A stretch of DNA of 36,890 nucleotides from positions 1-36,890 of the forward strand of contig JALVEX010000118.1 in the NCBI GenBank assembly GCA_027030435.1, in the 5' to 3' direction. This DNA is from Paracoccaceae bacterium (lineage in GTDB: Bacteria > Pseudomonadota > Alphaproteobacteria > Rhodobacterales > Rhodobacteraceae). The notes under the pieces were generated by a model. That model did no database searches and was not told the origin of the DNA. It saw only the letters and a list, made by a program, of their open reading frames with translations. The translations under genes were made by a program, and so were the position numbers. Positions 13,314 through 31,760 of this stretch are shown piece after piece. Numbering within the stretch: position 1 is the first letter of the stretch; every line of letters starts with the position of its first letter.

Positions 13314-14657
13314 TCATTCCTGAGGTTTCAAGACCTTGAGACCATGCAGAAGATCAACTGCGTAGGAAAGCTGGAAATCCTCCTCTCGCAGCTTGGCGGC
13401 AGCTTCCGCGGCAGCCGCCTCCTCCTCGAGCTGGCGACGCTCTTCCTCGCTCATGGAATCATTTTCCAGCACCCCGCGAAGATCCGCCTCGCTGCGCAGC
13501 TTCGGCCCCTTGGGCTGATCCGCCTCGGCGGTCTTGTCTTCAGGCTTGCGCGGTGGCTGGAGCACGACGATATCCGGGATCACGCCAAGCGCCTGAATGG
13601 AACGGCCCGATGGGGTGTAATAACGTGCGGTTGTGAGGCGCATCGCGCCGCCGTTCTTCAGCGGCATGACTGTCTGGACGGAGCCCTTGCCGAAGCTCTT
13701 CGTGCCCACGACAACCGCGCGGCGGTGATCCTTGAGCGCCCCGGCCACGATCTCGGACGCCGAGGCAGAGCCCCCATTGATGATGACGACGATCGGCTTG
13801 CCCTGGGCCAGATCGCCCGGCGTGGCATTCCAGCGATCGCCATCCTCCGGGTTGCGCCCGCGGGTGGAAACGATCTCGCCCTTGTCGAGGAAGGCATCGG
13901 CCACCTTGATTGCCTGGTTGAGCAGACCGCCAGGGTTGTTGCGCAGATCGATCACGAAGCCTTCCACATTCTCGATCCCGCCAAGCTCCTCGATGGATTT
14001 GCGAATACCTTCCTGGAGATTGGGATAAGTCTGATCGTTGAAGGTGGTGATCCTGAGCACCACCGTCTTGCCTTCGGTGCGGGCCTTCACGGCCGTGAGC
14101 TTGATCGTGTCGCGCACCAGCGTGACATCAAACGGCTCTTCCTCGCCCTTGCGCACGATGGTGATGACGATCTCCGAACCCACCGGCCCGCGCATAAGCT
14201 CAACCGCCTTGTCGAGCGTGAGGCCGAGCAGGCTTTCCCCGTTCACATGGGTGATGAAATCTCCCGATTTGATGCCCGCCTTCGCGGCCGGCGTGCCATC
14301 GATCGGCGAAACCACCTTGACGAAACCATCCTCCATGGTGACCTCGATCCCGAGCCCGCCGAACTGGCCCCGAGTCTGGACCTGCATGTCATCGAAATCC
14401 TTGGGGGGGACATAGCTCGAATGGGGATCGAGGGAAGTCAGCATGCCGTTGATCGCTGCTTCGATCAGCTTTTCCTCATCCACCGGCTCCACGTAATTGG
14501 CCCGGATGCGCTCGAATATGTCGCCAAACAGATCGAGCTGCTCATAGACATTCGTGGTGCGCTCGGCTTCCTGTGCGATCAGGGGTGCCGCGATCTGGGT
14601 TGTCATGATCGCGCCGGCAAGCGTGCCGCCGATTATCGCCATAAGGGATTTCTTCAT
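13314..14657 (-). CDS. ctpA: Carboxy-terminal processing protease (S41 family) with PDZ domain
   Basis: S41 blocks are present: GGLGIEV (PDZ), [22 protein letters not shown] (catalytic Ser) and [10 protein letters not shown] (catalytic Lys). The start is placed at MKKSLMA (signal/anchor). Confidence 0.85.
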
Positions 14658-15838: not shown

Positions 15839-17352
15839 TCGATCAGGCTCCTGCCTGTCATTTCGGGAGGCGCTTCGAGCCCCATGAGATCAAGGAGCGT
15901 CGGTGCAAGATCGCTGAGCCGCCCATCGCGCAGCTGCGCCCCCGAGGGTCCGCCGACAAGGATCACCGGCACCGGATTGGTGGTGTGGGAAGTGTGGGGC
16001 CCGCCGGTGACGGGATCGAGCATCATCTCGCAATTTCCATGATCGGCTGTGACGATCATCGCGCCCCCGGCCTCTTCAAGTGCTTCGAGCGCGCGGCCAA
16101 GCCCGTGATCCACCGCCTCCACCGCCTTGATCGCAGCGGGAAGATCGCCGGTATGGCCGACCATATCGGGATTTGCGTAATTCACCACGATCAGATCATA
16201 CCCCTTGCCGATCGCCTCCACCAGATGATCGGTGACCTCGGGCGCCGACATCTCGGGCTGCAGATCGTAGGTCGCCACCTTGGGGCTTGGCGCCATATAG
16301 CGATCCTCGCCCTTCTCGGGCTCTTCCTTGCCGCCATTGAGGAAGAAGGTCACATGCGGGTATTTCTCCGTCTCGGCGAGGCGGAACTGGCGCAGGCCGT
16401 GCTTCGCCACCCAAGCGCCGAGCGTGTTTTCAAGATTGCGCTTGGGGAAGACCGTGCGCATGTATTCATTGTGCCGGTCTGAATATTCGACCATCCCAAG
16501 AAGCGCAGAGAGCTTTGGCCGGCCGCTCACATCGAAGCAGTCGAAGCCGGGCTCGCCGATGGCGCGCAGGATCTCGCGGGCACGGTCAGAGCGGAAATTG
16601 AGCATGAAAAAGCCATCGCCATCGCGCATGCCCGGGTAATCCCCGATCACCGTGGGCGTGATGAATTCATCCGTTTCGCTGCGTGCATAGGCAGCTTCAA
16701 TGGCAGAGAGCGGATCCTCCGCCTTCAGCCCATCCCCCTTCACGATCGCCCGCCAGGCCTTCTCGACCCGCTCCCAGCGGTTATCGCGGTCCATGGCAAA
16801 GTAGCGGCCGATCACGGTGGCCACCCGCGCGCCCTCGGGGAGACGATCGAGAAGTTCGCGCATGAAATGGGCGGCGGATTTGGGCGCCACGTCGCGCCCG
16901 TCCGTGATCGCATGGATCCAGACGGGCACCCCGGCTTCGCGGACAGCCCTTGCCGCAGCGATTATGTGATCGAGATGGCCGTGCACCCCGCCATCGGAAA
17001 CCACGCCGAAGAGATGCGCTGCCCCGCCCGCAGCCTTCACGGCGGCGATGAAATCGCGAAGGGCCTCGTTGCGGAAGAAGGAGCCATCCTCGATCGCGAG
17101 ATCGATCATGCCCAGATCCATCGGCACGATGCGCCCGGCGCCGATATTCATGTGGCCGACTTCCGAATTGCCCATCTGCCCGCGCGGCAGCCCCACATCG
17201 CGCCCATGGGTGACAAGCGTCGCATTCGGGCAGCTGGCCATGATGCGATCGAAATGCGGGGTATTCGCAAGCGCGGGCGCGTTTGCCTCGCTGTCGGCCC
17301 GCAGGCCCCAACCATCGAGAATGCACAGAACGACAGGTTTGCGGTTTGTCAT
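15835..17352 (-). CDS. gpmI: 2,3-bisphosphoglycerate-independent phosphoglycerate mutase
   Basis: The 505-aa product has ILDGWG near the N-terminus, the catalytic-Ser block MGNSEVGHMNIGAGR, and GHTG plus TADHGN in the C-terminal phosphatase domain. Confidence 0.92.
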   Translation of the reverse strand: MTNRKPVVLCILDGWGLRADSEANAPALANTPHFDRIMASCPNATLVTHGRDVGLPRGQMGNSEVGHMNIGAGRIVPMDLGMIDLAIEDGSFFRNEALRDFIAAVKAAGGAAHLFGVVSDGGVHGHLDHIIAAARAVREAGVPVWIHAITDGRDVAPKSAAHFMRELLDRLPEGARVATVIGRYFAMDRDNRWERVEKAWRAIVKGDGLKAEDPLSAIEAAYARSETDEFITPTVIGDYPGMRDGDGFFMLNFRSDRAREILRAIGEPGFDCFDVSGRPKLSALLGMVEYSDRHNEYMRTVFPKRNLENTLGAWVAKHGLRQFRLAETEKYPHVTFFLNGGKEEPEKGEDRYMAPSPKVATYDLQPEMSAPEVTDHLVEAIGKGYDLIVVNYANPDMVGHTGDLPAAIKAVEAVDHGLGRALEALEEAGGAMIVTADHGNCEMMLDPVTGGPHTSHTTNPVPVILVGGPSGAQLRDGRLSDLAPTLLDLMGLEAPPEMTGRSLIE

Positions 17353-17356
17353 CGGA

Positions 17357-17410
17357 TGCCCTTTTGCGGATCGCGCAGCCCGTATCTATGCCCCCGCCCG
17401 CAAAAGGGCA
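17357..17410. repeat. 13-bp perfect inverted repeat in the rlmH-gpmI spacer
   Basis: tgcccttttgcgg (17357-17369) is the exact reverse complement of ccgcaaaagggca (17398-17410), with a 28-nt spacer. The repeat lies between the rlmH stop (17422) and the gpmI start (17352). Confidence 0.6.
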
Positions 17411-17421
17411 AGCAGACGCCT

Positions 17422-17892
17422 TCAGGCGCGGTGATAGGGCGCGCCCGCCAGAATGGAGGAAGCGCGATAGAGCTGTTCGCTCAGCATCACCCGCGCCAGC
17501 ATGTGCGGCCAGACCATACTTCCGAACGATAGCCTGAAATTCGCCTTGTCGCGCAGTTCGGGCAGGAGCCCGTCGGCACCGCCGATGAGAAAGGCGAGAT
17601 CGCCGCGCCCCTCGTCGCGCCAGCCGGCGATGCGCCCGGCGAAATCGGGCGAGGAGAGCAGCTTGCCGCGTTCGTCCAAAGCGCAGATCACGGCGCCCTT
17701 GGGTATCACCCGCCCAAGCAGCTCCGCTTCCTCGCGCATTCCGCCCCCCTTGCGTGCCTCCACCTCATGCACCGCGACAGGCCCGAGGCCGAGCGCGCGC
17801 CCGCTGCGTTCGAAACGGTGCAGGTAATCCTCGATCAATTCCCGCTCCGGGCCGCCCCTGAGGCGCCCCACGGCGCAGATATGCAGCCGCAT
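17422..17892 (-). CDS. rlmH: 23S rRNA (pseudouridine1915-N3)-methyltransferase
   Basis: The 156-aa SPOUT-type protein has an RlmH-like sequence (LDERGKLLSSPDFA and SFGSMVWPHMLARVMLSEQLYRA). It sits directly downstream of rsfS, as in most bacteria. Confidence 0.9.
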   Translation of the reverse strand: MRLHICAVGRLRGGPERELIEDYLHRFERSGRALGLGPVAVHEVEARKGGGMREEAELLGRVIPKGAVICALDERGKLLSSPDFAGRIAGWRDEGRGDLAFLIGGADGLLPELRDKANFRLSFGSMVWPHMLARVMLSEQLYRASSILAGAPYHRA

Positions 17893-17895
17893 CCC

Positions 17896-18291
17896 TCAGG
17901 CGGAGGCGCCGGGCGCACCCGATTGCCACATCTTTTCAAGCTGATAGAAAGCCCGCACTTCCGGGCGGAAAACATGCACGATCACATCGCCCGCATCGAT
18001 CAGCACCCAATCGCCCTGATCCTGGCCCTCCACCTTGCAGCGGTAGCCAAGAAGCTCCTTCAGGCGATCCACGAGCTTTTCCGATATGGCGGAAACCTGA
18101 CGCGTGGAGCGGCCAGAGCAGATCACCATGTAATCGGCGATCTCCGATTTTCCGTGCAGATCGATGGTGACGGCATCTTCCGCCTTGTCACTTTCCAGGG
18201 ATTTCAGAATGCGCTTCAGCAGCTTCTCGCTGGAAACATCCACTGGCGCGCCCGCTCCGGCAACGCCAGGCATGGCCTCTTGTGCGGCCAT
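17896..18291 (-). CDS. rsfS: Ribosome silencing factor
   Basis: The RsfS core is present (ILKSLESDKAEDAVTIDLHGKSEIADYMVICSGRSTRQV and WVLIDAGDVIVHVFRPEVRAFYQLEKMW). The start is uncertain: ATGs at 18393, 18291 and 18273 are all in frame. Confidence 0.8.
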   Translation of the reverse strand: MAAQEAMPGVAGAGAPVDVSSEKLLKRILKSLESDKAEDAVTIDLHGKSEIADYMVICSGRSTRQVSAISEKLVDRLKELLGYRCKVEGQDQGDWVLIDAGDVIVHVFRPEVRAFYQLEKMWQSGAPGASA

Positions 18292-18842
18292 ATCGGCTGA
18301 GTGAGACAGGGTTTTCCCTCCTTCATAGCACACCGGAAAATCGCCCCGGTGCAGGCCTGAACTGAAAATAGCATCGGCTCGCGGAAATCTCAATCACGCC
18401 GGAAGATACCAAAATGACATTCCAATCAGCACGTCGTGTTTTCATCCCTGCCCAGCATGGTTCGGCCACGGAAGCGGGGATCATCACCCGCCCCTTTCCC
18501 ATCCCGCCATGATCCTGCCTCCGATCCGCCGATACAGCCGATCCAATCTGTACAGGCATGCCGGATATTTCAGCGCCCTGCGAGGCCCAGCCTGCCGCGG
18601 GATCATGAGCGAGCGCGGCGCGGGCAGGCATGGCCGCCCAGCGCCTGAGGATATCGATCCGTTTGCCTTGCCCCAGCGCGATGCAGATAGTAAATCGCTT
18701 GCATGATTCTTGTTTTCGACATGGATGACCGCGCGCGCCTGCCCTGGCGATTCTTCGGCGCGTCTCTCTCTGTGCTGGCCCGCCCGTGAGGCGCGGCCCC
18801 CTGAATCCATCCGCACAGCCTGACAATCACGGGAGAGGACCA

Positions 18843-20249
18843 ATGACCGCCCCGAAAACGCTTTATGACAAGATATGGGATGCCCATCTCGTCGAGGAAT
18901 CCGAAGATGGCACCAGCCTGATCTACATCGACCGTCACCTCGTGCATGAGGTTACCAGCCCGCAGGCCTTCGAAGGGCTGCGCATGGCCGGCCGCAAGGT
19001 GCGTGCGCCGGAGAAGACCATCGCCGTGCCCGATCACAACGTGCCCACCACGCCCGACCGCGAGAAAGGTATCGAAAACGAGGAAAGCCGCATCCAGGTG
19101 GAGGCGCTGGACAGGAACGCGCGCGAATTCGGCATCCACTACTATCCGGTCAATGACATCCGCCAGGGAATCGTGCATATCGTCGGCCCCGAACAGGGCT
19201 GGACGCTTCCTGGCATGACTGTCGTCTGCGGCGACAGCCACACCGCCACCCACGGCGCCTTCGGAGCCCTCGCCCATGGGATCGGCACCTCGGAGGTGGA
19301 GCATGTGCTCGCCACCCAGACCCTGATCCAGAAGAAATCGAAGAACATGAAGGTGGAGATCACGGGCAGGCTCCAGCCCGGCGTTACCGCCAAGGATGTG
19401 ACCCTTGCCATCATTGGCGCCACCGGCACAGCGGGCGGCACCGGCCATGTGATCGAATATTGCGGCGACGTGATCCGCGATCTTTCCATGGAAGGGCGCA
19501 TGACGGTCTGCAACATGGCGATCGAAGGCGGCGCCCGCGCCGGGCTGATCGCGCCCGACGAAAAGACATTCGAATACATCAAGGGCCGCCCCCACGCCCC
19601 GAAGGGCGCGCAATGGGAAGCGGCGATGGCCTGGTGGCAGACGCTGTTTACCGATGAGGATGCGGAATTCGACAAGGTGGTGACACTGAAAGGCGAGGAT
19701 ATCGCGCCCGTCGTCACCTGGGGCACGAGCCCCGAGGATGTGCTGCCGATCACCGCCGAGGTGCCCGATCCCGAGAGCTTCGAGGGCGGCAAGGTGGATG
19801 CCGCACGCCGGGCGCTTGAATACATGGGGCTGAAGCCGGGCCAGAAGCTCACCGATATCGAGATCGATACCGTATTCATCGGCTCCTGCACCAACGGGCG
19901 CATCGAGGATCTGCGCGCCGCGGCCGAGATCCTGAAGGGGAAGAAGATCAAGGAAGGCATCCGCGCCATGGTGGTGCCAGGCTCGGGGCTGGTGCGTGCC
20001 CAGGCCGAGGAGGAGGGGCTGGCGCAGATCTTCATAGATGCCGGTTTCGAATGGCGCCTCGCGGGCTGCTCCATGTGCCTTGCCATGAACCCCGATCAGC
20101 TTTCCCCCGGCGAGCGCTGCGCCGCCACCTCTAACCGTAATTTCGAGGGCCGGCAGGGGAAGGGCGGGCGCACCCATCTGATGAGCCCCGCCATGGCCGC
20201 CGCCGCGGCAATCACCGGCCGGCTCACCGACGTGCGCGAATTGATGTAA
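18843..20249 (+). CDS. leuC: 3-isopropylmalate dehydratase large subunit
   Basis: Aconitase-family blocks are present: [35 protein letters not shown] and [10 protein letters not shown]. The start is set at ATG 18843 ([15 protein letters not shown]), preceded by gggagagg. Confidence 0.95.
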
Positions 20250-20260
20250 GGATTGCAAAG

Positions 20261-20866
20261 ATGGAAAAGTTCACCACCCTCACCGGCGTTGCCGCCCCGC
20301 TGCCGCTGATCAATGTCGATACCGACATGATCATCCCCAAGCAGTTCCTGAAAACCATCAAGCGGTCGGGGCTCGGAAAGAACCTGTTTGACGAGATGCG
20401 CTATCTCGAGGACGGCAGCGAAAACCCGGATTTCGTGCTGAACAAGCCCGCCTACCGCAATGCCGAAATCCTGATCGCAGGCGAGAATTTCGGCTGCGGC
20501 TCCTCGCGCGAACATGCCCCCTGGGCACTCTTGGATTTCGGCATCCGCTGCATCATCGCGCCGAGCTTTGCCGACATCTTCTACAACAACTGCTTCAAGA
20601 ACGGCATCCTGCCGATCGTGCTTCCTCAGGAGCAGGTTGACGAATTGATGCGCGAAGCCGAAAAGGGCGAGAATGCGCGCATGACGGTGGATCTCGAGAA
20701 TCAGGAAATAACCACCTCGGAGGGCAAGACCTTCCGATTCGAGATCGATTCCTTCAAGAAACATTGCCTGCTCGAAGGGCTGGATGATATCGCGCTCACC
20801 ATGGCCAGGATCGACTCGATCGCCGAATATGAACGCAAGATGGCGCTTGAAAGGCCTTGGGTCTAG
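20261..20866 (+). CDS. leuD: 3-isopropylmalate dehydratase small subunit
   Basis: The LeuD signature [17 protein letters not shown] is present, and the gene starts 11 nt downstream of leuC. Confidence 0.95.
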
Positions 20867-20905
20867 ACCATTAGCGTTTCCAGGAAAACCCAGCACAAGA
20901 TGTTG

Positions 20906-20933
20906 AGAGGCCCGATTTTCCGGGCCTCTTTTT
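20906..20933 (+). terminator. Rho-independent terminator after leuD
   Basis: A 9-bp stem, agaggcccg (20906-20914) / cgggcctct (20921-20929), has a 6-nt loop and is followed by a T-run (20929-20933). Confidence 0.7.
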
Positions 20934-21096
20934 ACTGAAAAATTGATGCAAAGTCGCACCAGTTTGAACACGAAAATGCCCAAATGGTCACGTCTTTATT
21001 AACTCCGAAAAAAGGGTGTCATAGACAGGAAGCTCCCTATAGTGGATTGATTTTCTGTCTATACAACTATAGGTTTAGTAGTGAAGGGTCGGGGCC

Positions 21097-22047
21097 ATGG
21101 GCAAAATGAAAATGGCCCATCATCAAAAGATGGGACGCATGGGTAACGATATCGACATGGACGAACGGGAGAAAACTGTTCTGGATTGGTTTGAAGGCAA
21201 GGGAGAGAAGATCTCCCGCCTGGCCGGCGCCGTCATCCGGGCATTGCTCGTCGTTCTTCTGGTTTCCATTCCTTCCGTGCTTCTGCCCGGCGTCAGCACC
21301 GACACCGCACAGATGGTCGCTCTGATCGCGATCTTCGCGGCTGCGCTCACGATTTTCGAATATGCCTCCACATATCCCAGCCTCGTTGAGTTCCGCGATG
21401 CTCCGCCTTTCAACCGGGTGCGTTTCGTTTCCCTGTTCATCACGGTCTTCCTGCTGACGGTAATCGTGCGCGGCACCATCGAGCCCACCACGCTCACCCG
21501 ATTCGTGACGGCCGTGGGCAGCCTCATAGGCCAGGCAATCGATTTTCCCTACAGCCCGGTGCGCCTGATCGTGCTGATGCTGCCGGAAAATACCTCCGTC
21601 GAACACATGATCCTGATCCGCACCGCGGCTGGCATCAGCTACCTGATCTCACTGCTCACGCTGGCGATCTTCCTCATCCTGATCCGCATTCAGGGATGGC
21701 CGAATTCCGGCAAGCCTTTCAATGTCTGGGTCAACATGCCGACATTCGATCCCACTGCCGGGGGGGATGTGGTGGCACGGCTGATCAGGGATGCAAGACT
21801 CAACATCATCCTCGGCTTCCTCCTGCCCTTCCTCATCCCGGCAACGGTAAAGGCTGCATCAAGCGTATTCGTGCCCTTTACCCTTGACTCCCCGCAAACT
21901 CTGATCTGGACAATGTCGGCATGGGCATTTCTTCCGGCAAGCCTGTTCATGCGAGGCATGGCCATGGGCCGCGTCGCCGACATGATCAAGGAAAAGCGCC
22001 GCTTCGAAAACGGCGAATACGGGCAGGATGGCCTGCAGCCTGCCTGA
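21097..22047 (+). CDS. Hypothetical polytopic membrane protein
   Basis: The 316-aa ORF has several long hydrophobic segments (AVIRALLVVLLVSIPSVLLPGV, MVALIAIFAAALTIF, FVSLFITVFLLTVIV, ISYLISLLTLAIFLILI, NIILGFLLPFLIP). I recognise no family. The exact start among the N-terminal Met codons is uncertain. Confidence 0.55.
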   Translation: MGKMKMAHHQKMGRMGNDIDMDEREKTVLDWFEGKGEKISRLAGAVIRALLVVLLVSIPSVLLPGVSTDTAQMVALIAIFAAALTIFEYASTYPSLVEFRDAPPFNRVRFVSLFITVFLLTVIVRGTIEPTTLTRFVTAVGSLIGQAIDFPYSPVRLIVLMLPENTSVEHMILIRTAAGISYLISLLTLAIFLILIRIQGWPNSGKPFNVWVNMPTFDPTAGGDVVARLIRDARLNIILGFLLPFLIPATVKAASSVFVPFTLDSPQTLIWTMSAWAFLPASLFMRGMAMGRVADMIKEKRRFENGEYGQDGLQPA

Positions 22048-23231
22048 ACGCACTCATCCTTTGGGCAGGCCTGCTCACATGGGCCTGCCTGCCCGCATTA
22101 GCCGCCAGCGAAAAACCGATCCGCATTGCAACCTTCAATACCGGGCTCTCCGCCAAAGGCCCCGGGCTCCTGCTGCGCGATATCATGAAGGGCAAGGATC
22201 CCCGTGTCCGTGAAATCGTCCGCGTGATCGCTGAAGCCTCGCCTGATGCCATCCTGCTGACGAATTTTGACTGGGATCTGGAAAACCGGGCCCTCTCGGC
22301 CCTTTCGATGCGCCTCGGCGATGCCGGCATCTCCTATCAATACCTCTTCGCCTTCAGGCCGAATACAGGTCTGCGCAGCGGCCTTGATCTCGACGGAGAC
22401 GGCCGCACCAATGGACCGGGGGATGCCCAGGGCTTTGGCCGCTTCACGGGTGAGGGCGGCATGGCCATCCTCTCGCGGCTGCCGATCCGGGCCGATCTGG
22501 CGGAAGATCATTCCGCTTTCCTGTGGAAGGATCTGCCCTTCGCCGAGGTGCCCCGAAAGGGGGGCAGGCCCTTTCCATCACCCGAGGCCCGCGAGATCCA
22601 GCGCCTTTCCAGCACCGGGCACTGGGTCGTTCCCGTCGTCCTGCCTGATGGGCGCCTTCTGCGCCTCATGGCCTTTCACGCCACGCCGCCCGTCTTCGAT
22701 GGCTCTGAAGATCTGAACGGCCTGCGCAATGCCGACGAGATCCGCTTCTGGCGGCACTATCTCGATGGCCGGATTCCCGGCGCAGGAAACGCCGGCGCCA
22801 GCCCCCCCTTCGTGATCCTGGGCGACGCCAATCTCGATCCCGCGGATGGCCCCGGACGCCATGAGGCCATAATGGCCCTCCTCTCCGACCCCCGCCTCTG
22901 CGATCCTGCCCCGGCAAGCGGCGAAAGCGCGGCACTTTCGCGCCGGCAGGGGGGTGTAAACCGCGCTCACAAGGGCGATCCCCGCCATGATACGGGCGAT
23001 CTTCGCGATGATCCCGGCCCCGGCAACCTGCGGCTCGATTATCTTCTCCCCTCGGCCGATCTCGCAATCCGGGGGAGCGGGATGATCTGGCCGGATGCGG
23101 CCGCTTTCCAGGATCGCTCGCGCCACGCACTCATATGGGTAGATCTCGGTATTGCCGCAGGCGATGGGGCAAGCGGCGCGGCGGGCATATCGCGCGATAC
23201 ATGCGCCTCACAGGGCGCAGGCGGGCAATAA
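21921..23231 (+). CDS. Endonuclease/exonuclease/phosphatase (EEP) family protein, probably exported
   Basis: A signal-like segment [21 protein letters not shown] is followed by [38 protein letters not shown] and DYLLPS, which resemble the EEP fold blocks. The only canonical in-frame start is ATG 21921, which overlaps the upstream gene by 127 nt, so the true start is uncertain. Confidence 0.65.
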
Positions 23232-23304
23232 TCCCGTAGCTGCGCTTGACCCTCCCCCGCGAGGCGGCTACCCCATGCCCGACAGATCAAACCCGGAGAA
23301 CCCC

Positions 23305-24411
23305 ATGGCAAACCCTTCGCTTCTCATCCTTCCCGGCGATGGCATCGGCCCCGAGATCATGGCCGAAGTGCACAAGATCATCGAATGGTTCGGCGCAAAA
23401 CGAGGCCTTCGCTTCGATGTCAGCGAAGATCTTGTCGGGGGGGCCGCCTACGATGCTCACGGCGTGCCGCTCACCGATGAAACCATGGCGAAGGCGCAGG
23501 AAGTTGATGCCGTGCTTCTCGGCGCCGTGGGCGGCCCGGCCTATGACGATCTCGATTTCTCGGTCAAGCCCGAGCGGGGGCTTTTGCGCCTGCGCAAGGA
23601 GATGGATCTCTTCGCCAACCTGCGCCCGGCGCAGTGCTTCGATGCGTTGGCCGATTTCTCGACCCTGAAGCCCGATGTGATTTCGGGCCTCGACATCATG
23701 ATCGTGCGCGAGCTGACATCCGGCAGCTATTTCGGAGAGCCGCGCGGCATCTTCGAGGAAAACGGCGAGCGGGTGGGCATCAACACCCAGCGCTATACCG
23801 AGGGCGAGATCGATCGGGTCGCCCGCGCCGCCTTCGATCTCGCGCGCAAGCGGGATCGGCGCGTGTGCTCGATGGAGAAGGCCAATGTGATGGAAAGCGG
23901 CATCCTGTGGCGCGAGGTGGTGCAGGCGGTGCGCGATGCCGATTATCCCGATATCGAGCTTTCGCACATGTATGCCGATGCCGGCGCGATGCAGCTCGTG
24001 CGCGATCCGAAGCAATTCGATGTGATCGTGACCGACAACCTCTTCGGCGATCTCCTTTCCGATGTTGCCGCCATGCTCACCGGATCGCTCGGGATGCTGC
24101 CCTCGGCAAGCCTCGGCGCGCCGATGGAAAACGGCCGGCCCAAGGCGCTCTACGAGCCTGTCCATGGCTCCGCCCCCGATATCGCCGGCCAGGGCAAGGC
24201 CAATCCCTGCGCCTGCATCCTCAGCTTCGCCATGGCGCTGCGCTATTCATTCGACCAGGGGGAAGAAGCGGATCGGCTGGAATCGGCGGTGGAAAACGTG
24301 CTCTCCAAGGGGCTGCGCACACCCGATCTGATGCAGAAGGAAGGGGCGAAGCCGGTCACCACATCAGAGATGGGTGATGCCGTCGTCGCAGCTCTTGAAG
24401 AAAGCCTCTGA
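23305..24411 (+). CDS. leuB: 3-isopropylmalate dehydrogenase
   Basis: LeuB blocks are present: [41 protein letters not shown] and [18 protein letters not shown]. The start is set at ATG 23305, preceded by ggagaa. Confidence 0.95.
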
Positions 24412-24507
24412 GGGAGAGAACGAGGGTAGCGCCGAACGCGCACGCTGAAACGGCTCAAAACCCTCTTGCAAAATCCAAAGACTCGGTATACCCGCCTTCC
24501 ACAGGTC

Positions 24508-24584
24508 CGGAGTGTAGCTCAGTCTGGTAGAGCACTGCCTTCGGGAGGCAGGGGCCGGAGGTTCGAATCCTCTCACTCCGACCA
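24508..24584 (+). tRNA. tRNA-Pro (anticodon CGG)
   Basis: A hand-folded cloverleaf works throughout. The acceptor is CGGAGTG/CACTCCG, the D arm is GCTC-AGTCTGGTA-GAGC, and the anticodon arm is CTGCC-TTCGGGA-GGCAG with anticodon CGG. The T arm is GGAGG-TTCGAAT-CCTCT, followed by discriminator A and an encoded CCA. Total length is 77 nt. Confidence 0.9.
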
Positions 24585-24930
24585 ATAAATCAAATCCTTG
24601 TCGCGCCCGTTTCCGGCTCTCTTGGCCGAGTATCTTGGCGCTCGCCAGGATTTTTGGTCATCTTCTCTCTCATCCCTCCGTCATGAGATTCCCCTGCCGC
24701 CATCTGGAAATCCGGTTAAGGAAGCAGAAACATGGCCACCAGTGCCAAGATGGATGCTTCGAAGGAGAGGGGAATTGTATTGCGAGGTACCCGGATGCGG
24801 GGATACAAACATGGGACACGGACCAATGAAAACCCTCATTTCCTTTGTGAAGTGATTGAGGATTCGGCTCAACGTTGCGTCAGGGGGGCAGGCGACTTTC
24901 CGATGCCGGGGACGGGAGGAGTTTGATACT

Positions 24931-25524
24931 ATGGATACAATGAAGAGCAAGGCCTTTCCTGTTTTCTTTTCCGTGGCCAGCGCAGACATCGAGTTCGCCG
25001 AGCGCGTGTGGGAGCCACTCCCAGACGACTGGGTTTATCTTTACTCAAAAACCGGCGAAGAGGCTGCGCACGTGTGGGACGAGATATCGGAGCGCGAATT
25101 GCCCCGCGCCAAGATTCTCGTCATTTTCTGGTCGCGAAACTATCTGAAGGCGCAAGGCTGCATCCGTGAGATCAAGCAGGCCGCAGGGCTTGTTGATTCT
25201 GGGCTTCTGCGGCCTCTGGTCCTGCGCCTTGACGACTGCCCGATCAGCTGGACCGAAGAGTTTCCGGAAGCTGACAAGGCCACCTTCGAGGCCCTGGGCA
25301 AAGCGCTGAACTACCGCACCTCTCACCCAGGCATCTCGGTTGATCACGCACGCGAGCTCGTGGCCCGGGTCGCTGAGCCGCTCCTGTCGTCCGATACCCA
25401 CGGCTGCCGCGACCTGAACTTCTGCGGGCGATGCGGGCCGGCCTTCAGATGCCCGATGACAGGTTTCGGTTTTACCCTGCCGCATGGGTTTCGGGGTTCA
25501 ACGGCGTTGGTCGCGAAACTCTGA
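24931..25524 (+). CDS. TIR-like domain protein; the last ~45 codons look out of frame, so it may be the N-terminal part of a frameshifted TIR-STAND-TPR gene
   Basis: An SD-like gggagga (24914-24920) precedes ATG 24931. TIR-type blocks are FPVFFSVASADIEFAERV (betaA plus following helix) and ILVIFWSRNYLKAQGCIREI (25114-25173), which resembles the 'vvvlS.nY..S.WC..El' block. Glu80 (25168-25170) is at the catalytic-Glu position. The tail after about 25390 (SSDTHGCRDLNFCGRCGPAFRCPMTGFGF...) is Cys/Gly/Arg-rich and does not look protein-like. Confidence 0.65.
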   Translation: MDTMKSKAFPVFFSVASADIEFAERVWEPLPDDWVYLYSKTGEEAAHVWDEISERELPRAKILVIFWSRNYLKAQGCIREIKQAAGLVDSGLLRPLVLRLDDCPISWTEEFPEADKATFEALGKALNYRTSHPGISVDHARELVARVAEPLLSSDTHGCRDLNFCGRCGPAFRCPMTGFGFTLPHGFRGSTALVAKL

Positions 25525-27527
25525 TAAGAGATTACAATCGCGACTTTACTCCCAATGGGCATGCGATCACGCTCGAGGTGAACGAAGCCACCCTTCCTCG
25601 CGATCTCTTGCTCCGAATCGAAAGCGAGGCCTTCGGGGCAGATATTGATGCGTTGACGCAGCTTAAGGAGGCCACGTTTGAAAGCGAAACAGGCACGGTC
25701 GCCGAAGCCATCGAACGGGTCGTGGAGGCGGGGAACTATGTTATCCTCAGGCATTCGCGAATCGTCGAGGAGCGTGTCGACCTGCCCGAGTGGCTCGACG
25801 AAGTGGTGAATTCTCTTGAGCCTGCCACACGAAGCAAACTGTTCATCATCTCCCAGGTTCCGCTGCTCAAAGAGCGGCGCATTCGCTGCAAGGACCGGAT
25901 GGAAAGCCAGCGGGTTCCGACAATCGACGAACATGTGCTGCGCGAATACTGCTTGCAGCTCGTCGGTCATTTCGACCCTCATCCGGAGCGGTGGAGCGAA
26001 GACGACGTCGAAAGGATCGTCGCTGCTGCAGGCGGAAACATCGGTTTTCTTGTTACCCTGGTTCGCGTCGCCTCGCGGATTGAGGACATGGACCAGCTGG
26101 ATGCCCTGATCGCTGCCGAAGGGGCGCAGATGGTCGAACAGATGACCGTCTATGCGCGCTGGGCATTTTCGCAACTTCGCGAATTCCCGGAGGAACAACG
26201 TACCCTCGCTTTCCTCAACGATGTCTCGCCCTGTGATCTGATCGACCTGGAGAAGGTCGTGAAACCCCGATCGGATAGGCCGATGATGCGTGTCCTGGGC
26301 AAGCTTCTCGAGCTTGGGCTGGTCGAGCGGGAAGGCGAAAACCTCTATCGCCTGACACCGCTTCTTTCGCACCGTTTAGAGCGCGATCTTGTCGGGCCGG
26401 AACTGACGCAATGGAAACGGCGGGCCCTTGAAGACTTCGTGAAGTCCCCCCCCAAAGTCGAAACGACCGAGCATGAATTCCTGCGAATCGAAACCCGCAT
26501 TCAGGCGGCAATGCTGACGGGAGAGGAAAAACTCCCGAACAGTGTGGCAAAGTTCGTCTCCGCCGCGCATTGGTTTCAAGCGGGGATCCGGCTCTATCAC
26601 GCCAACCGGCGCGAGTTGGCCTGGAGACTGCTGAAAAAGGCTTACACGCATAGGTCCGAATTCACGCAATCAACGCGCGTGGAAATCATGCGCTACTATG
26701 CCCTCAGCGCAATACGCATGAGGAAATTCGAGGATGCAGATGCCGTGATCCAGCTGCTGGACAATGACCACCGCACGAAGGCACTGGCAGCGTTCCTCTG
26801 CGGCAACCTGGAAGAATTCAAGAGCCGAGATCGCCGATATGATCGGAGGGATCACCTGTTTGAAGCCATTCGGCAATATGAAACAGCGCTCAAGTTGAAC
26901 GCTGGAAAAGATTCCCGGCTTGAGCACACCTATCGTCCTCTGATCAGCTGCATTCTGCACACTACGAAGCCCGACTTCGAGAAAGCCGAGCGTTATGCTC
27001 TGGAATACGTCAAGCTGCGCCGCACTGTATTCAGCCTGATGGCACTGGCGCGCGTGTATCTGCATTGGAGATACCGGGAGGATGCATATGGCCGGGAAGT
27101 GCCGGAGGACATCGAACGCCTCTATCACCACGCTCTCGACGATCTGTCGAACCACCCGGGCGTCAACAGCGCGCATTTCGAGATCCGCGCTGAGGAGGCG
27201 GAGTTTGAAGGCGATTTCGCCGGGGCACTCGAATTCATGGATGAGGCGGTTGCCGCAGATCCGCGCCCGTTGCTGAGGATGTCGCGTTGGAACCTCATGG
27301 CGCGCAGTGGTGATGCCAACATCGCGCAGCAGGTGCTTGACGAGATGCGGCAGGCAAAGGACGAGGACGACTTCAGAGGAAACTGGTCGGTCTATCTCCC
27401 CGCGCTCGCCGAGATCTATGCCCGAGCCCTGAAAACAGCGGGGAAGCCGCTTGGTTTGCTCAATCAGTTCGCCGTCGGCTTGCAGGATAGGGAAATCAGC
27501 AGAATCATTGGCAGAATCCGAACTTGA
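25431..27527 (+). CDS. STAND (NB-ARC/AAA_16-like) NTPase-fold protein with C-terminal TPR-like repeats; NLR-like
   Basis: The blocks occur in STAND order. They are the P-loop-like VSGFNGVGRETL (25494-25520 core), SKLFIISQVP (25833-25862), the GLPL-like GGNIGFL (26031-26051), and the winged-helix-like LGKLLELGLVEREGENLYRLTPLLSHRL. These are followed by about 330 aa of helical TPR-like repeats (e.g. FEDADAVIQLL, LFEAIRQYETALKLN, EGDFAGALEFMDEAVAADP). The reading frame is actually open from 25377, upstream of the first ATG. Confidence 0.75.
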   Translation: MRAGLQMPDDRFRFYPAAWVSGFNGVGRETLIRDYNRDFTPNGHAITLEVNEATLPRDLLLRIESEAFGADIDALTQLKEATFESETGTVAEAIERVVEAGNYVILRHSRIVEERVDLPEWLDEVVNSLEPATRSKLFIISQVPLLKERRIRCKDRMESQRVPTIDEHVLREYCLQLVGHFDPHPERWSEDDVERIVAAAGGNIGFLVTLVRVASRIEDMDQLDALIAAEGAQMVEQMTVYARWAFSQLREFPEEQRTLAFLNDVSPCDLIDLEKVVKPRSDRPMMRVLGKLLELGLVEREGENLYRLTPLLSHRLERDLVGPELTQWKRRALEDFVKSPPKVETTEHEFLRIETRIQAAMLTGEEKLPNSVAKFVSAAHWFQAGIRLYHANRRELAWRLLKKAYTHRSEFTQSTRVEIMRYYALSAIRMRKFEDADAVIQLLDNDHRTKALAAFLCGNLEEFKSRDRRYDRRDHLFEAIRQYETALKLNAGKDSRLEHTYRPLISCILHTTKPDFEKAERYALEYVKLRRTVFSLMALARVYLHWRYREDAYGREVPEDIERLYHHALDDLSNHPGVNSAHFEIRAEEAEFEGDFAGALEFMDEAVAADPRPLLRMSRWNLMARSGDANIAQQVLDEMRQAKDEDDFRGNWSVYLPALAEIYARALKTAGKPLGLLNQFAVGLQDREISRIIGRIRT

Positions 27528-27659
27528 GTCCGTGGTTTTGAGCGGGCTTGCCGGATAAGGCACAGCCAGAAGGCGGCCCACAAATGGCTTGGCGGAACCA
27601 CGAAAGGGGCGAAAATCGCTTCTTCGTTGTGCTCTGCGCAAGGGTTGATCGGCTCGCCC

Positions 27660-28502
27660 CTATGCCGGGTCAGCGATTACCTCCTGCTGTTGCTCGCCCA
27701 GCCCCTCGATCCCGAGGTGCACTACGTCGCCCGGCTTGAGGAAGCGCGGCGGCTTCTTACCCATGCCGACACCGGGCGGCGTACCTGTCGAGATGATGTC
27801 GCCCGGATGGAGCGTGAAGAAGCGGCTGAGATAGGAAACGATATGCGCCACGCCGAAAACCATCGTCGCTGTCGATCCGTCCTGCATGATCTCACCGTTC
27901 ACCTCGAGCCACAGCCTGAGATTCTGCACATCTTTCACCTCGTCGGGCGTGACCAGCCACGGGCCGATCTGGCCGAAATTATCGCAGCTCTTGCCCTTGG
28001 TCCACTGGCCTTCATGCCGGATCTGGAAATCGCGCTCCGAGACATCATTGACCACGCAAAAGCCGGCCACATGATCCATCGCTTCGGCTTCATCGATGTA
28101 TTTTCCCGGCTTGCCGATAATGATGCCAAGCTCCACTTCCCAATCGGTCCTGGTCGAGCCGCGGGGAATGATGATCGGATCATCGGGGCCGCAGATCGCG
28201 CTGGTGGCCTTCATGAAGAGCACCGGCTCAGAGGGGATCGCCATGCCGGTTTCTGCGGCGTGGTCGGAATAGTTCAGCCCGATGCACATGAATTTTCCAG
28301 TGCCCCCCACACAAGGGCCCAGGCGCGGGTTGCCCTCGACCAGAGGCAGCGAGGCAACATCAAGCGTGCCAAGCGTTTCCAGATCGGCGAGCACCGTGCC
28401 CGCGAGATCATCGATCACGCCCGAAAGATCGCGCAGATTTCCATTCGCGTCGATCATGCCGGGCTTTTCAGCCCCCCGTTCGCCGTATCTTGCCAGTTTC
28501 AT
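27660..28502 (-). CDS. Fumarylacetoacetate hydrolase (FAH) family protein
   Basis: The product has a FAH-family style: MKLARYG...GMIDANGNLRDLS at the N-terminus, then CIGLNYSDHAAE, EVELGIIIGK, VNDVSERDFQ, KGKSCDNF and GDIISTGTPPGVG. The start is set at the internal ATG 28502. Confidence 0.85.
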   Translation of the reverse strand: MKLARYGERGAEKPGMIDANGNLRDLSGVIDDLAGTVLADLETLGTLDVASLPLVEGNPRLGPCVGGTGKFMCIGLNYSDHAAETGMAIPSEPVLFMKATSAICGPDDPIIIPRGSTRTDWEVELGIIIGKPGKYIDEAEAMDHVAGFCVVNDVSERDFQIRHEGQWTKGKSCDNFGQIGPWLVTPDEVKDVQNLRLWLEVNGEIMQDGSTATMVFGVAHIVSYLSRFFTLHPGDIISTGTPPGVGMGKKPPRFLKPGDVVHLGIEGLGEQQQEVIADPA

Positions 28503-29047
28503 CGTCGTCTTCCTGCATCCTCCGGCCGCCGTCAATGATACGTGTCGCCCGGTGGCAAATCCGGCCCATTGGCGCGGCATTGGGGTATAGTAGCCTCCCC
28601 GACTGAAGCATTTCCCTGCTCGACGGCGGCGTTCATGGCCGCACCATCGTATTCATTGCATATCTTATTCAGACTTTCCATCGACATGCGCCGTCATGAA
28701 ACGGCCCGTTCGCCATCCTGCTCCTGCATCGGGGATGTCATGAATTCTTTGTGTCTGGTCCGGCCCAATTCTCCTCGAAGGTATCGCGTTCTGCCATGAT
28801 CACCGGCCAAGGGGTGAATTTACGATGTTTTTCGGCCACGCGCAAAGTGCGGCTCGATGCCTCCCAGGTGGCGCCGGCAAGCCAAAAAGATACTTGCTTG
28901 TCATGTTGACTGCCCCTGTCCTCAAATCGGCCAAAGATAACACGATTTATTTCTCAATAGTTCCTATGGGCTCACAACCTAATGTTACTGTTCGTATGGC
29001 TTTTTTCGCGCTAGGCTGCCTCAACCCCCAGCAAAAGGAGCGCCCTC

Positions 29048-29311
29048 ATGGAATACGCACGTCTTGACGCCATCAGGTTCGGTCTCGCCGCCGGAATAAC
29101 CGTTTTCCTGTTCGGCCTGTTCTTCTTCCTGCTCAGCTTGCTGACAGGCGGCATGATGATGATGCGCATGGGGATGGGGGTGGAATTCGGTGGTATGGCC
29201 GGAGGGGCCGGCATGATGTTTGGCGGCTTCCTGATGAGCGGGCTGTTTTCCGGGATCATTACCGGGATCTTTGCAGGGGTGATGGCGGCCATCTACAACC
29301 GCCTGCTCTGA
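29048..29311 (+). CDS. Small hydrophobic Met/Gly-rich membrane protein (hypothetical)
   Basis: An SD aaaggag (29034-29040) lies 7 nt before ATG 29048. The 87-aa product has two or three hydrophobic segments and a central GGMMMMRMGMGVEFGGMAGGAGMMFGG stretch. Confidence 0.5.
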   Translation: MEYARLDAIRFGLAAGITVFLFGLFFFLLSLLTGGMMMMRMGMGVEFGGMAGGAGMMFGGFLMSGLFSGIITGIFAGVMAAIYNRLL

Positions 29312-29316
29312 TCATC

Positions 29317-29814
29317 TCAATGCGCCGCCGCGTATCCGGCTGCGGCCCAGGCCTGCTGACCAGGCATTTCCACTGCGCAGGGGCGCACGGAGCGCAGGCG
29401 CGCAAGCGCCGCTCCGGGGGCCTCGCCCGCCTCGCACATCAGCCGCATCAGCGCCATCCCCGAACGTCCGCAGCCGGCCCAGCAATGGGCGAAAACCTTT
29501 CCGCCGGCCCTCAGCACCCGATGCGCCTCGCGCGAGGCTTCCGCCCAGAGCGCCGCATGCTCCGGCCCCGGGGCGCCGAAATTGGCGATCGGCAGATGCC
29601 GCCAGCCCACATCCGCAAGGGCAAGATCATCGCCGAGCCGCCCGGCTCCTGCCATCTCGAGCTCCTCCTCTGCCGTGAGGCTCAGCACCAGATCGGCCGG
29701 CCAGCGCAGCAGCGCCGTGAGATCGGCCTGATAGCCGCGCACCCGCCCCGGCATCGGCCCGATGCCGATCATCCCCTTTTCCAGGGCAAGCTCGCCCGCC
29801 GGATATGATGCCAT
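29317..29814 (-). CDS. Dual-specificity / protein-tyrosine phosphatase family protein
   Basis: The Cys-based phosphatase signature HCX5R(S/T) is present as VFAHCWAGCGRSG. Confidence 0.75.
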   Translation of the reverse strand: MASYPAGELALEKGMIGIGPMPGRVRGYQADLTALLRWPADLVLSLTAEEELEMAGAGRLGDDLALADVGWRHLPIANFGAPGPEHAALWAEASREAHRVLRAGGKVFAHCWAGCGRSGMALMRLMCEAGEAPGAALARLRSVRPCAVEMPGQQAWAAAGYAAAH

Positions 29815-29918
29815 TTCGCCGCTCCTCTGCCTGCCACCCTACCCTTGCGCTTTACGGCGGGCAACACTCCCCCTAACCTGTTGCGGATCCCGAATCCGCA
29901 GCGCAGCCAGAGGCGAGC

Positions 29919-31760
29919 ATGAGCGAAGAACAAAAAACCGGCTATCAGGTTCTTGCCCGCAAGTATCGCCCCGAAACCTTCGCCGATCTCGTCGGCCAGG
30001 ATGCCATGGTGCGCACCCTGAAAAACGCCTTCGCCGCCGATCGCATCGCCCAGGCCTTCATTCTCACGGGCATCCGCGGCACCGGCAAGACAACAACCGC
30101 GCGCATCATCGCCAAGGGGCTCAACTGCACCGGCCCCGATGGCCAAGGCGGCCCCACGACCGAGCCCTGCGGCCAGTGCGAGGCCTGCCGCGCGATAAGC
30201 GCCGGCCAGCATGTGGACGTGATCGAGATGGACGGCGCCTCGCAGACCCGGATCGACGATATCCGCTCCAACGTGCTCGAAAGCGTCCATTACGCGCCCA
30301 CCTCGGCACGCTACAAGATCTACATCATCGACGAGGTGCACATGCTCTCCACCTCGGCCTTCAACGCGCTTCTGAAAACGCTCGAAGAGCCGCCGCCGCA
30401 TGTGAAATTCATCTTCGCCACCACCGAGATCCGCAAGGTGCCCGTGACGGTGCTTTCGCGCTGCCAGCGCTTCGATCTGCGCCGCATCGAACCGGAAGAG
30501 ATGATCGCGCTGCTGCGCCGGATCGCCGATGCGGAGGGCGCCAGCATCACTGACGAGGCGCTCGCGCTCATCACCCGCGCCGCCGAGGGCTCGGCACGAG
30601 ATGCCACATCGCTTCTCGATCAGGCGATCAGCCACGGCGCGGGCGAAACCACCGCCAAGCAGGTGCGCGCCATGCTCGGGCTCGCCGATCGCGGCCGGGT
30701 GCTCGATCTCTTCGACATGATCCTAAAGGGCGATGCCGCCGGCGCGCTTGGCGAGCTTGGCGCGCAATATGCCGATGGCGCCGATCCCTTGGTGGTGCTG
30801 CGCGATCTGGCCGAAATCGCGCATTGGGTTTCGGTGGTGAAGATCACTCCCGATGCGGCCGATGATCCCACCATCGCACCGGAAGAGCGCGCCCGCGGTC
30901 AGACGATGGCCGAAAGCGTGCCCATGCGGGTGCTCTCGCGGATGTGGCAGATGCTTCTGAAGGCGCTGGAAGAAGTGGCCCAGGCCCCGAGCAGCATGAT
31001 GGCCGCGGAAATGGCGGTGATACGGCTGACCCATGTGGCCGACCTCCCGAGCCCGGATGAGCTTGTGAAAAAGCTCGCTGCCGCCCCTGCGCCAGCCCCG
31101 GCACCCGCTGCGCCCCCGCCGCGGCCCTCCCCGCCGCCAGCGGGGGGATCGGATGGGGCACGGGCGGCGGCACCCGGCGAACCCGGCCCTGCCAGACCCA
31201 CACAACATCGCGTCTCCGAAACCGGCGGCAGCGGCCCCACGGCCATGACCGCCACCGCCCCCGCGCAGACGCCCGACAGCCTTGCCGCCCGCTATCCGAC
31301 CTTTGAAGACGTGATCGCCCTCATCCGCGCGATGCGCGACATGAAACTTCTGTTTGACGTGGAAAGCGGTGTCAGGCTCGTGAGCTACGCGCCCGGGCGC
31401 ATCGAATTCGAGCCAGCCCCCGGCGCGCCCGCCGATCTTGCCCAGAGGCTCGGGCGCCAGCTCGCGGCCTGGACAGGTGCCCGCTGGGGTGTTTCGGTGG
31501 TGAGTGGCGGCGGCGGCGCAACTATCGCAGACAGGATGCGGAAAGAGGAGGAAGCTCTAAGGGCCCGGGCCGCTTCTCATCCCCATGTCAAAGCGGTTCT
31601 CGATATCTTTCCCGGCGCAGAAATCCGGAAAGTGCGCACAAGGGGAGAGCTGATTGCATCGGCTTCCGCAGGCGCGCTTCCCGGCGCTCAGAGTGAAAGC
31701 GATGGCGAAACACAGGAGAGCGGCGACGATGAGGCGTGGGATCCCTTCGAACATGATTGA
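29919..31760 (+). CDS. dnaX: DNA polymerase III subunit gamma/tau
   Basis: The product has YRPETFADLVGQ, Walker A GIRGTGKTTTARI, a Zn module CGQCEACRAI, Walker B IYIIDEVHML and sensor SRCQRFDL. A Pro/Ala-rich linker is followed by a tau C-terminal domain. Confidence 0.95.
   Translation: MSEEQKTGYQVLARKYRPETFADLVGQDAMVRTLKNAFAADRIAQAFILTGIRGTGKTTTARIIAKGLNCTGPDGQGGPTTEPCGQCEACRAISAGQHVDVIEMDGASQTRIDDIRSNVLESVHYAPTSARYKIYIIDEVHMLSTSAFNALLKTLEEPPPHVKFIFATTEIRKVPVTVLSRCQRFDLRRIEPEEMIALLRRIADAEGASITDEALALITRAAEGSARDATSLLDQAISHGAGETTAKQVRAMLGLADRGRVLDLFDMILKGDAAGALGELGAQYADGADPLVVLRDLAEIAHWVSVVKITPDAADDPTIAPEERARGQTMAESVPMRVLSRMWQMLLKALEEVAQAPSSMMAAEMAVIRLTHVADLPSPDELVKKLAAAPAPAPAPAAPPPRPSPPPAGGSDGARAAAPGEPGPARPTQHRVSETGGSGPTAMTATAPAQTPDSLAARYPTFEDVIALIRAMRDMKLLFDVESGVRLVSYAPGRIEFEPAPGAPADLAQRLGRQLAAWTGARWGVSVVSGGGGATIADRMRKEEEALRARAASHPHVKAVLDIFPGAEIRKVRTRGELIASASAGALPGAQSESDGETQESGDDEAWDPFEHD

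Follow-up and report, generated by a model that had tools for sequence, protein, structure and literature searches.

A TIR-NOD-TPR gene beside tRNA-Pro of a Paracoccaceae bacterium, probably an Avs-like NADase sensor and most likely inactivated by one missing base

Results and Discussion

Positions 24931-27527 of contig JALVEX010000118.1 from a Paracoccaceae bacterium (assembly GCA_027030435.1; the window analysed is the whole 36,890-nt stretch) contain two overlapping open reading frames (ORFs) on the forward strand, downstream of a tRNA-Pro gene. We interpret this segment as one horizontally acquired TIR-NOD-TPR gene that encodes an Avs-like abortive-infection NADase sensor, is inactivated in this copy, and has a NOD (the central nucleotide-binding oligomerisation module) that is probably ATP-independent. 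We assign this composite reading a probability of about 0.62. The locus had first been described from the sequence and its translated ORFs as a module of two genes next to tRNA-Pro, combining a TIR effector, a STAND switch and TPR-like repeats (hereafter the original prediction). The peptides and coordinates given there, including Glu80 (GAG, 25168-25170) and the 698-aa length of ORF B, are all exact. Its split arrangement is not retained, as the locus is really one gene with a 1-nt deletion.

Two overlapping reading frames are the halves of one gene

ORF A and ORF B lie in different frames and overlap by 94 nt (Table 1). Searching with ORF B yielded about 120 homologues. Almost all consist of one chain of 840-870 aa and have TIR_2 at the N-terminus. 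About 100 of them are intact and full-length, one chain each, and the few shorter matches examined are disrupted copies. The closest homologue, P0002, is 856 aa long and 80% identical in this search. The DNA of the window was aligned with the intact genes of P0002 (L003) and P0003 (L001). Exactly one gap is found in the window, at 25395|25396, where GAT-ACC stands against GATCACC in both loci. Insertion of a C at this point gives a single ORF of 865 aa with no further stop or lesion, and the repaired protein is 81% identical to intact P0002. The ratio of nonsynonymous to synonymous substitution rates (dN/dS) relative to P0002 is 0.08 overall; domain by domain it amounts to 0.05 (TIR), 0.10 (NOD) and 0.09 (TPR region). 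ORF A and ORF B are thus the halves of one TIR-NOD-TPR gene. The 1-nt shift accounts for the apparent overlap of the ORFs, and the 43 terminal codons of ORF A are read in the wrong frame and carry no real protein sequence. Since the locus is one broken gene and no two-gene system, annotation pipelines and motif readers should join both ORFs of this contig.

Most likely, a real deletion inactivated the window copy very recently and left a pseudogene. A real mutation is favoured because the contig looks sound elsewhere, showing 8 gap openings over 11 kb of alignment to a 94%-identical contig of an Albidovulum metagenome-assembled genome (MAG), and because the missing base lies outside any homopolymer. 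The strongest competing explanation, which we consider unlikely, is that the frameshift arose during assembly or sequencing and that the organism possesses an intact gene for a working TIR-NOD-TPR defence protein. This would agree with the frameshift being the sole lesion in 2.6 kb, with the low dN/dS and with the full length of the repaired ORF; the contig is moreover of metagenome type and the called window protein was found on one contig only. The absence of a homopolymer and the few indels elsewhere in the contig argue against an artefact, as does the fact that other copies of the family are truly disrupted, and by different lesions. The gene of P0066 (L093:180-2747) has a stop codon within the P-loop (GFNGVGRE-stop-LIRD) and is called as ORFs of 187 aa and 662 aa, which resembles the split seen in the window. 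In P0075 (L091:137-5965; L092), an insertion of about 3.2 kb separates the TIR part from the remainder and carries genes for an IS1595-family transposase, a PemK toxin and a DUF5343 protein. Such repeated independent inactivation (L093, L091/L092) fits what is expected of a costly abortive-infection gene.

At the locus of P0004 (Rhizobium sp., L084:9914-10001), nucleotide homology begins 87 nt before the annotated start of the 810-aa protein, whose annotation is probably N-terminally truncated.

Predicted domain organisation of the protein

ORF A matches Pfam TIR_2 narrowly, with 29.4 bits for a gathering score of 28 (E = 1.2e-6), and the same domain (PF13676) is present in many homologues. 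When compared with the PDB, the family profile matches the TIR chains of Cat1 and RPS4. Two segments are conserved in the family, the βA motif FFSVSS.D and the block FWS..Y…GC[VI]RE[IL]. The Glu of the second segment is invariant (100/100 homologues; the window reads GCIRE(80)I) and is retained in every distant relative that has an intact TIR region. Glu80 is therefore the putative NAD+-cleaving residue, predicted to lie on helix αC in a WC..EL-type motif. The TIR domain and the catalytic position of its Glu, both proposed originally, are thus borne out by the profile and the alignment.

Profile searches give a different picture for ORF B, which has no significant match in Pfam, PADLOC or NCBIfam. 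The Pfam models NB-ARC, NACHT and AAA_16 yield no match at E ≤ 1, the best Pfam match being AAA_17 (E = 0.17), and PADLOC-DB 2.0 gives none for either window ORF or for four full-length homologues. NCBIfam likewise yielded no match with the ORFs or with full-length homologues. Two AlphaFold2 models were constructed. The first corresponded to full-length P0002, built from a 100-sequence alignment (mean predicted local distance difference test score, pLDDT, 89; predicted template modelling score, pTM, 0.83), and the second to residues 1-321 of window ORF B, i.e. the NOD (pLDDT 91.4). The best Foldseek match of the full-length model is the STAND-TPR protein PH0952 (6MFV; E = 5.6e-11), and further matches include Avs3 (8dgc), the plant TIR-type receptor (TNL) RPP1, MalT, SAMD9, Cdc6 and Avs5 (9nc9). 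The NOD model matches the resistosomes of wheat G10 (2e-8), Roq1, RPP1, Sr35, ZAR1 and WRR4A, and also CED-4, the archaeal ATPase sso1545 and Cdc6/ORC, with E values from 2e-8 to 1e-5 and TM-scores up to 0.57. Because of these model matches, the middle region is read as an NB-ARC-like NOD, predicted to consist of a nucleotide-binding domain (NBD), a helical domain and a winged helix.

The C-terminal part of about 370 residues is modelled as a solenoid of helix pairs. Its Foldseek matches are 6mfv, the TPR subunits of the APC/C and CTPR proteins, and the homologues show Pfam TPR_1/TPR_2 matches. Neither the predicted models nor Pfam reveal a DNA-binding or other output domain. The proposed architecture of TIR, NB-ARC-like STAND and TPR thus holds at the level of the fold: the STAND and TPR assignments within ORF B are supported by structure prediction and Foldseek and not by Pfam, PADLOC or NCBIfam.

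The nucleotide-binding motifs are replaced throughout the family

Motifs were assigned from the strand order in the models (β1 with the P-loop, then β2, β3, β4 and β5) and from a profile alignment to PDB 9m0n. Compared with the canonical Walker A motif GxxxxGK[ST], the Lys is replaced by Arg in all 100 aligned members of the family, and the following residue is E, T or Q. This Arg extends well beyond the family. It is found in 32 of 33 aligned superfamily sequences, 9m0n included, the exception being P0277 (Lys), and among 30 relatives of 9m0n, 28 have Arg and 2 have Lys. Relatives down to about 21% identity, together with those of 9m0n, read G..G.GR[RK][ST] in almost all cases. At the Walker B position, the two acidic residues of the canonical hhhhD[DE] are replaced by RH (R in 98/100, H in 96/100); DD is kept only in the most distant branches, 9m0n among them. 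Strand β4 carries the equally well conserved LFIISQ.P (S in 100/100, Q in 96/100). In the models, GGNIGFL appears to correspond to a GLPL-like motif and LYRLTPLL to occupy the MHD position, with loss of the canonical His. The family-wide nature of these replacements substantiates the degenerate NTPase motifs noted originally. One assignment had to be changed: SKLFIISQVP is β4 (sensor-1/RNBS-B) and not Walker B, for which the position is taken by NYVILRH on β3.

In EfAvs5, K379, S380, D426 and the Arg of the 'TTR' motif contact ATP and Mg2+, and either K379A (Walker A) or D426A (Walker B) abolishes defence (PMC11897194). A precedent for degenerate NTPase motifs has been published for KpAvs8 (PMC13581612). 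Because the residues that contact ATP and Mg2+ are replaced family-wide, the NOD is probably an assembly scaffold that is independent of ATP hydrolysis and perhaps of nucleotide. In the mainly alphaproteobacterial clade, the lost residues have given way to equally invariant R, RH, SQ and LTP, and so strict a conservation of the substitutes speaks for a pocket that remains important. A charge swap between position 193 and Walker B (R/K at 193 with DD, as opposed to E with RH) was considered and rejected, since many relatives pair R/K at 193 with R/K at 271.

It is conceivable, and we propose it tentatively from the alignments, that the TIR-NOD-TPR superfamily including 9M0N is a separate NLR-like lineage in which the nucleotide switch has turned into a constitutively nucleotide-free assembly module or into a Mg-independent basic pocket that senses another phosphorylated ligand. 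Candidate ligands may then be a TIR product or a nucleotide alarmone. If true, this would be a natural, conserved NTPase-dead NLR. The loss of every canonical ATP-contacting residue across the family offers a natural test of a nucleotide-free NLR-type oligomerisation switch.

Distribution of the family and acquisition of the gene

The family is small, mainly alphaproteobacterial and rare, with 75 cluster representatives in 1.84 billion at E ≤ 1e-3. Nearly all full-length matches begin at about residue 165-210, and therefore there is no sign of effector swapping. No family member was found by tblastn of a phage collection or in a scan of IMG/VR, Foldseek against BFVD returned nothing specific, and plasmids gave remote matches only, on a Ralstonia megaplasmid.

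In the window, leuB (23152-24411; Pfam Iso_dh) is followed about 100 nt downstream by tRNA-Pro. The same tRNA-Pro lies 3' of leuB in about 50 of 80 relatives, and the DNA beyond it differs in every relative examined. No homologue of the TIR part or of the NOD-TPR part lies within 10 kb at any of the 80 leuB loci, which shows that the gene is not a universal core gene at this position. The genes that follow it in the window (27660-31760) are an FAA_hydrolase gene (fumarylacetoacetate hydrolase, FAH), a dual-specificity phosphatase (DSP)-like ORF and dnaX, and none of the three is linked to leuB in any of the 80 relatives. Therefore a synteny breakpoint is situated at or just past tRNA-Pro, and the tRNA forms the border between the conserved leuB side and a variable side. 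The GC content is 54-61% across roughly 24400-29200, compared with 63-70% in the flanks. Moreover, the TIR-NOD-TPR ORF alone resembles other loci, and the similarity stops at its ends. The gene is best explained as horizontally acquired cargo directly 3' of tRNA-Pro. That the locus is self-contained and accessory, as first proposed, agrees with its absence from the 80 leuB loci, its lower GC content and the lack of a shared neighbour described below.

The closest relative of the window is an Albidovulum sp. MAG (L004, WFVA01000120.1), 94% identical in nucleotides across window positions 13314-24407. Between leuB and tRNA-Pro this MAG carries about 1.5 kb (L004:11105-12720) that the window does not contain, which suggests strain-variable DNA in the leuB/tRNA-Pro region; its contig terminates 2 nt past tRNA-Pro. 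In Tropicibacter sp. R16_0 (L067), a full tRNA-Pro (12832-12908) is accompanied 7 kb downstream by a 46-nt copy of its 3' part (19889-19934). The pair bears the hallmark of attL and attR sites, left when an island integrates at this same tRNA.

Nine genomic contexts of homologues were examined. The Rhodobacter capsulatus homologue is found among three HipA/HTH (helix-turn-helix) pairs, AbiEii and GmrSD. That of Rhizobium sp. CB3060 directly follows a type I restriction-modification system and an AAA_15 ATPase gene and precedes a resolvase gene. A third homologue is located within a mobile element that also encodes a serine recombinase, ParB, Toprim and a transposase, another 6 kb from EcoRII/Vsr/Dcm, and another adjoins a Peptidase_M78 gene; the others are lone inserts among housekeeping genes. 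The link with defence made in the original prediction is thereby strengthened, homologues being found in defence islands. No neighbour or effector gene is conserved across the nine contexts, and since they share no neighbour the gene stands alone.

The remote Ralstonia solanacearum homologue (megaplasmid CP022795.1, L094:8001-10667) is 27.6% identical over the TIR and NBD and sits between two IS5/IS1182 transposase genes. Its annotated coding sequence begins about 470 nt into the protein match, so that the TIR part may have been missed in the annotation or may be damaged.

Comparison with known systems

The only relative at sequence level with a solved structure is PDB 9M0N/9UMD, an 824-aa 'Tetratricopeptide repeat protein'. 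The family profile matches its TIR and the N-terminal half of its NBD (E = 4e-10). It resembles the family in length, in its TIR-NOD-TPR order and in the Arg of its P-loop (GLIGVGRRS). It differs in having retained 'LDD' at Walker B, which reads 'LRH' in the family, and its TPR part aligns only weakly. A literature search found no paper citing PDB 9M0N. A search with its N-terminal 310 aa retrieved relatives of at most 61% identity (Bacillus, Klebsiella, Nonlabens, Leptonema) and did not find the protein itself.

PH0952 (6MFV) and MalT (8BOB) have the same succession of NOD and TPR-type sensor but no TIR effector. Both are canonical ATP-binding STANDs of the MalT type, whose role is regulation and not immunity.

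The Avs/AVAST systems, which include TIR-bearing Avs and the NADase-type Avs5 (SIR2-NOD-sensor), likewise combine effector, NOD and α-repeat sensor in a single chain. They share with the family the predicted fold (Avs3 8dgc, Avs5 9nc9), the stand-alone organisation and the occurrence in defence islands, and by analogy NAD+ depletion would be the expected output of both. However, the PADLOC AVAST models (types 1-5) give no match, the matched Avs3 chains are about 2,000 aa long against 865 aa here, and the ATP-binding Walker A Lys, Walker B Asp and 'TTR' Arg of EfAvs5 are all replaced in the family (PMC11897194).

The best fold matches for a TIR with an NB-ARC-like NOD are the plant TNLs RPP1, Roq1 and WRR4A, along with CED-4/Apaf-1-type proteins (TM-score about 0.55). 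The TNLs have the catalytic Glu of the TIR, and their GLPL and MHD motifs follow the same order as the GLPL-like and MHD-position motifs of the family. They differ in their sensor, which is made of leucine-rich repeats and a C-JID domain instead of an all-α TPR-like solenoid. The family is in addition bacterial, gives no signal with Pfam NB-ARC, and has neither the Lys of the P-loop nor the acidic Walker B residues nor the His of the MHD motif.

The TIR-II proteins of Escherichia coli, compared by architecture only, are also single proteins with TIR and TPR. About 30% of them carry an ATPase domain as well, and their defence was shown by experiment to need the TIR active site (PMC11350192). 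TIR-II is reported to be abundant and to occur also in phages (PMC11350192), whereas the family studied here is rare and absent from the phage collections. In Thoeris, the TIR protein ThsB is encoded next to its cognate effector gene, unlike the family with its lack of a conserved neighbour. BcTir/BcTpr, described in a preprint, was rejected as a match because it is a different, two-gene system, and a literature search for 'TIR-NLR' returned plant papers only.

TIR-bearing single-chain STAND sensors are therefore an established kind, and a homologous structure exists (9M0N/9UMD). A survey has defined 589 prokaryotic STAND clades, 198 of them defence-associated (Lee et al. 2026, PMC13581612), and the family may already figure among these 589, unnamed. 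The family is not captured by PADLOC-DB 2.0, Pfam or NCBIfam, and the one deviation of interest is a NOD that is conserved but apparently NTPase-dead. The distance from the described families suggested originally thus proves less than it seemed, TIR-bearing single-chain Avs and NLR-like proteins being known and a homologous structure having been solved.

Proposed activity and alternatives

Avs, Avs5 and plant TNLs serve as models for the mechanism. On this analogy, an intact protein would bind a phage-derived protein through its TPR solenoid. Ligand binding may then relieve autoinhibition and allow the NOD to drive oligomerisation. In the TIR domains clustered in this way, NADase sites built on the invariant Glu would become active, and depletion of NAD+ would abort the infection. 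Because the family has no effector gene as a conserved neighbour, depletion of NAD+ is more likely than signalling through a second messenger.

A Thoeris-like TIR, one that makes a messenger of the cyclic ADP-ribose or ADP-ribose type for an effector encoded elsewhere and does not deplete NAD+, is improbable. Bacterial TIRs do often make signals (10.64898/2025.12.03.692087), and the very basic pocket of the NOD (R28, R107/H108, R161) could hold a phosphorylated ligand. However, neither an effector nor any other gene accompanies the family in the nine contexts, and stand-alone and Avs-type TIRs are regarded as likely NAD+ depleters (10.64898/2025.12.03.692087). Still more improbable is a non-immune STAND regulator or scaffold, comparable to MalT or to other non-defence STAND clades, in which the TIR would act as a protein-interaction domain. 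Defence and non-defence STAND clades are interspersed (PMC13581612), several contexts of the family are housekeeping ones and the ATP-binding residues are lost, all of which would suit such a role. It would leave unexplained the invariant catalytic Glu retained under purifying selection, the lack of a DNA-binding or other output domain, the sporadic distribution with absence from relatives, the links to defence islands and mobile elements, and the repeated pseudogenisation. Least probable of all is a functional split, with a free TIR protein and a separate NOD-TPR protein initiated at ATG 25431 as a two-component system: the break does sit in the predicted loop between TIR and NOD, with an in-frame ATG 36 nt 3' of it, and in E. 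coli TIR-II-type systems TIR and TPR are found on one or two proteins (PMC11350192), but the roughly 100 intact homologues are one chain and the short ones examined are disrupted, ORF A closes with a 43-codon out-of-frame tail, no Shine-Dalgarno sequence precedes ATG 25431 and the gene caller took a still later GTG start (P0001). Programmed frameshifting was rejected because the site has no slippery sequence and the homologues are all in one frame.

Several observations count against an inactivated, horizontally acquired Avs-like NADase sensor with an ATP-independent NOD. The NOD is called from predicted structure only, with Pfam NB-ARC, NACHT and AAA_16 silent, and no PADLOC or NCBIfam model covers the family. 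The Arg of the Walker A motif could still bind nucleotide, so that 'nucleotide-independent' has to be read as an interpretation of the motif. A contig sequence without reads cannot separate a frameshift from an assembly error. The window has no second tRNA-Pro 3' end, flanking direct repeats, att repeat or integrase, and in about half of the contexts the homologue merely sits among ordinary housekeeping genes.

If active, this compact gene (about 855 aa) would add to the alphaproteobacterial repertoire a TIR-NLR-like defence gene that previously had no model. Current PADLOC, Pfam and NCBIfam models overlook the NOD of the family.

Features of the locus

The features assigned in and around the gene are collected in Table 1.

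Table 1. Coordinates of the tRNA gene, reading frames, predicted domains and motifs in the window.
Feature	Positions	Strand	Frame	Basis or remarks
tRNA-Pro (anticodon CGG)	24508-24584	+		ARAGORN; Rfam, 67.6 bits
Shine-Dalgarno-like GGGAGGAG (24914-24921), then ATG start of the rebuilt gene	24914-24933	+		Direct sequence reading; N-termini of homologues align there
Whole TIR-NOD-TPR coding sequence	24931-27527	+		865 aa after restoring one base
ORF A	ATG 24931 to 25524	+	1	Inside listed ORF 24856-25524
TIR domain, up to the frameshift	24931-25395	+	1	Pfam TIR_2
Putative catalytic Glu codon GAG (Glu80; E77 in P0002)	25168-25170	+		Alignment; in GC[IV]RE[IL]
Frameshift site, one nucleotide missing	25395-25396	+		His codon of the conserved SDHPRL linker, between TIR and NOD
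Out-of-frame tail of ORF A (…THGCRDLNFCGRC…stop)	25396-25524	+		Homologues use frame 3 here
Predicted NOD module (NBD, helical domain, winged helix), NB-ARC-like	25398-26393	+	3	AlphaFold2 and Foldseek
ORF B	25431-27527	+	3	698 aa
P-loop GFNGVGRET	25494-25520	+		Strand-loop-helix in models; Arg for Walker A Lys, Glu for Mg-binding Ser/Thr
Strand β3 YVILRH, structural Walker B position	25737-25754	+		Opposite 'IFFLDDG' of 9m0n
Strand β4 KLFIISQVP, sensor-1/RNBS-B position	25836-25862	+		Secondary-structure order; no 'TTR'-type Arg
GGNIGFL, helical domain	26031-26051	+		Model position; G366 in 100/100, G369 in 96/100
LYRLTPLL, winged helix	26343-26366	+		No His; in YRLTP, T in 95/100, P in 100/100
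All-α TPR-like solenoid, presumed sensor, to the stop codon	26394-27527	+		AlphaFold2 helix pairs; Foldseek
In-frame insertion of about 27 nt encoding SRDRRYDRR	26823-26849	+		Helix end in the TPR region; absent from closest homologues P0002, P0003 and R. capsulatus P0011

No sigma-70-like promoter was found upstream of the TIR-NOD-TPR gene. A terminator-like hairpin followed by TTTTGG is located at 24632-24660, about 50 nt 3' of tRNA-Pro, and would shield the gene from leuB/tRNA read-through. Downstream, a patch of low GC content (52-54%) spans 28600-29200, and a small Gly/Met-rich membrane-like ORF follows at 29048-29311. The minus-strand ORF at 29317-29814 (165 aa) has about 70% GC. Its matches to DSP-type protein tyrosine phosphatases are below threshold and include the 'polymorphic toxin system' phosphatase Tc-R-P, at 26.2 bits for a cut-off of 27.

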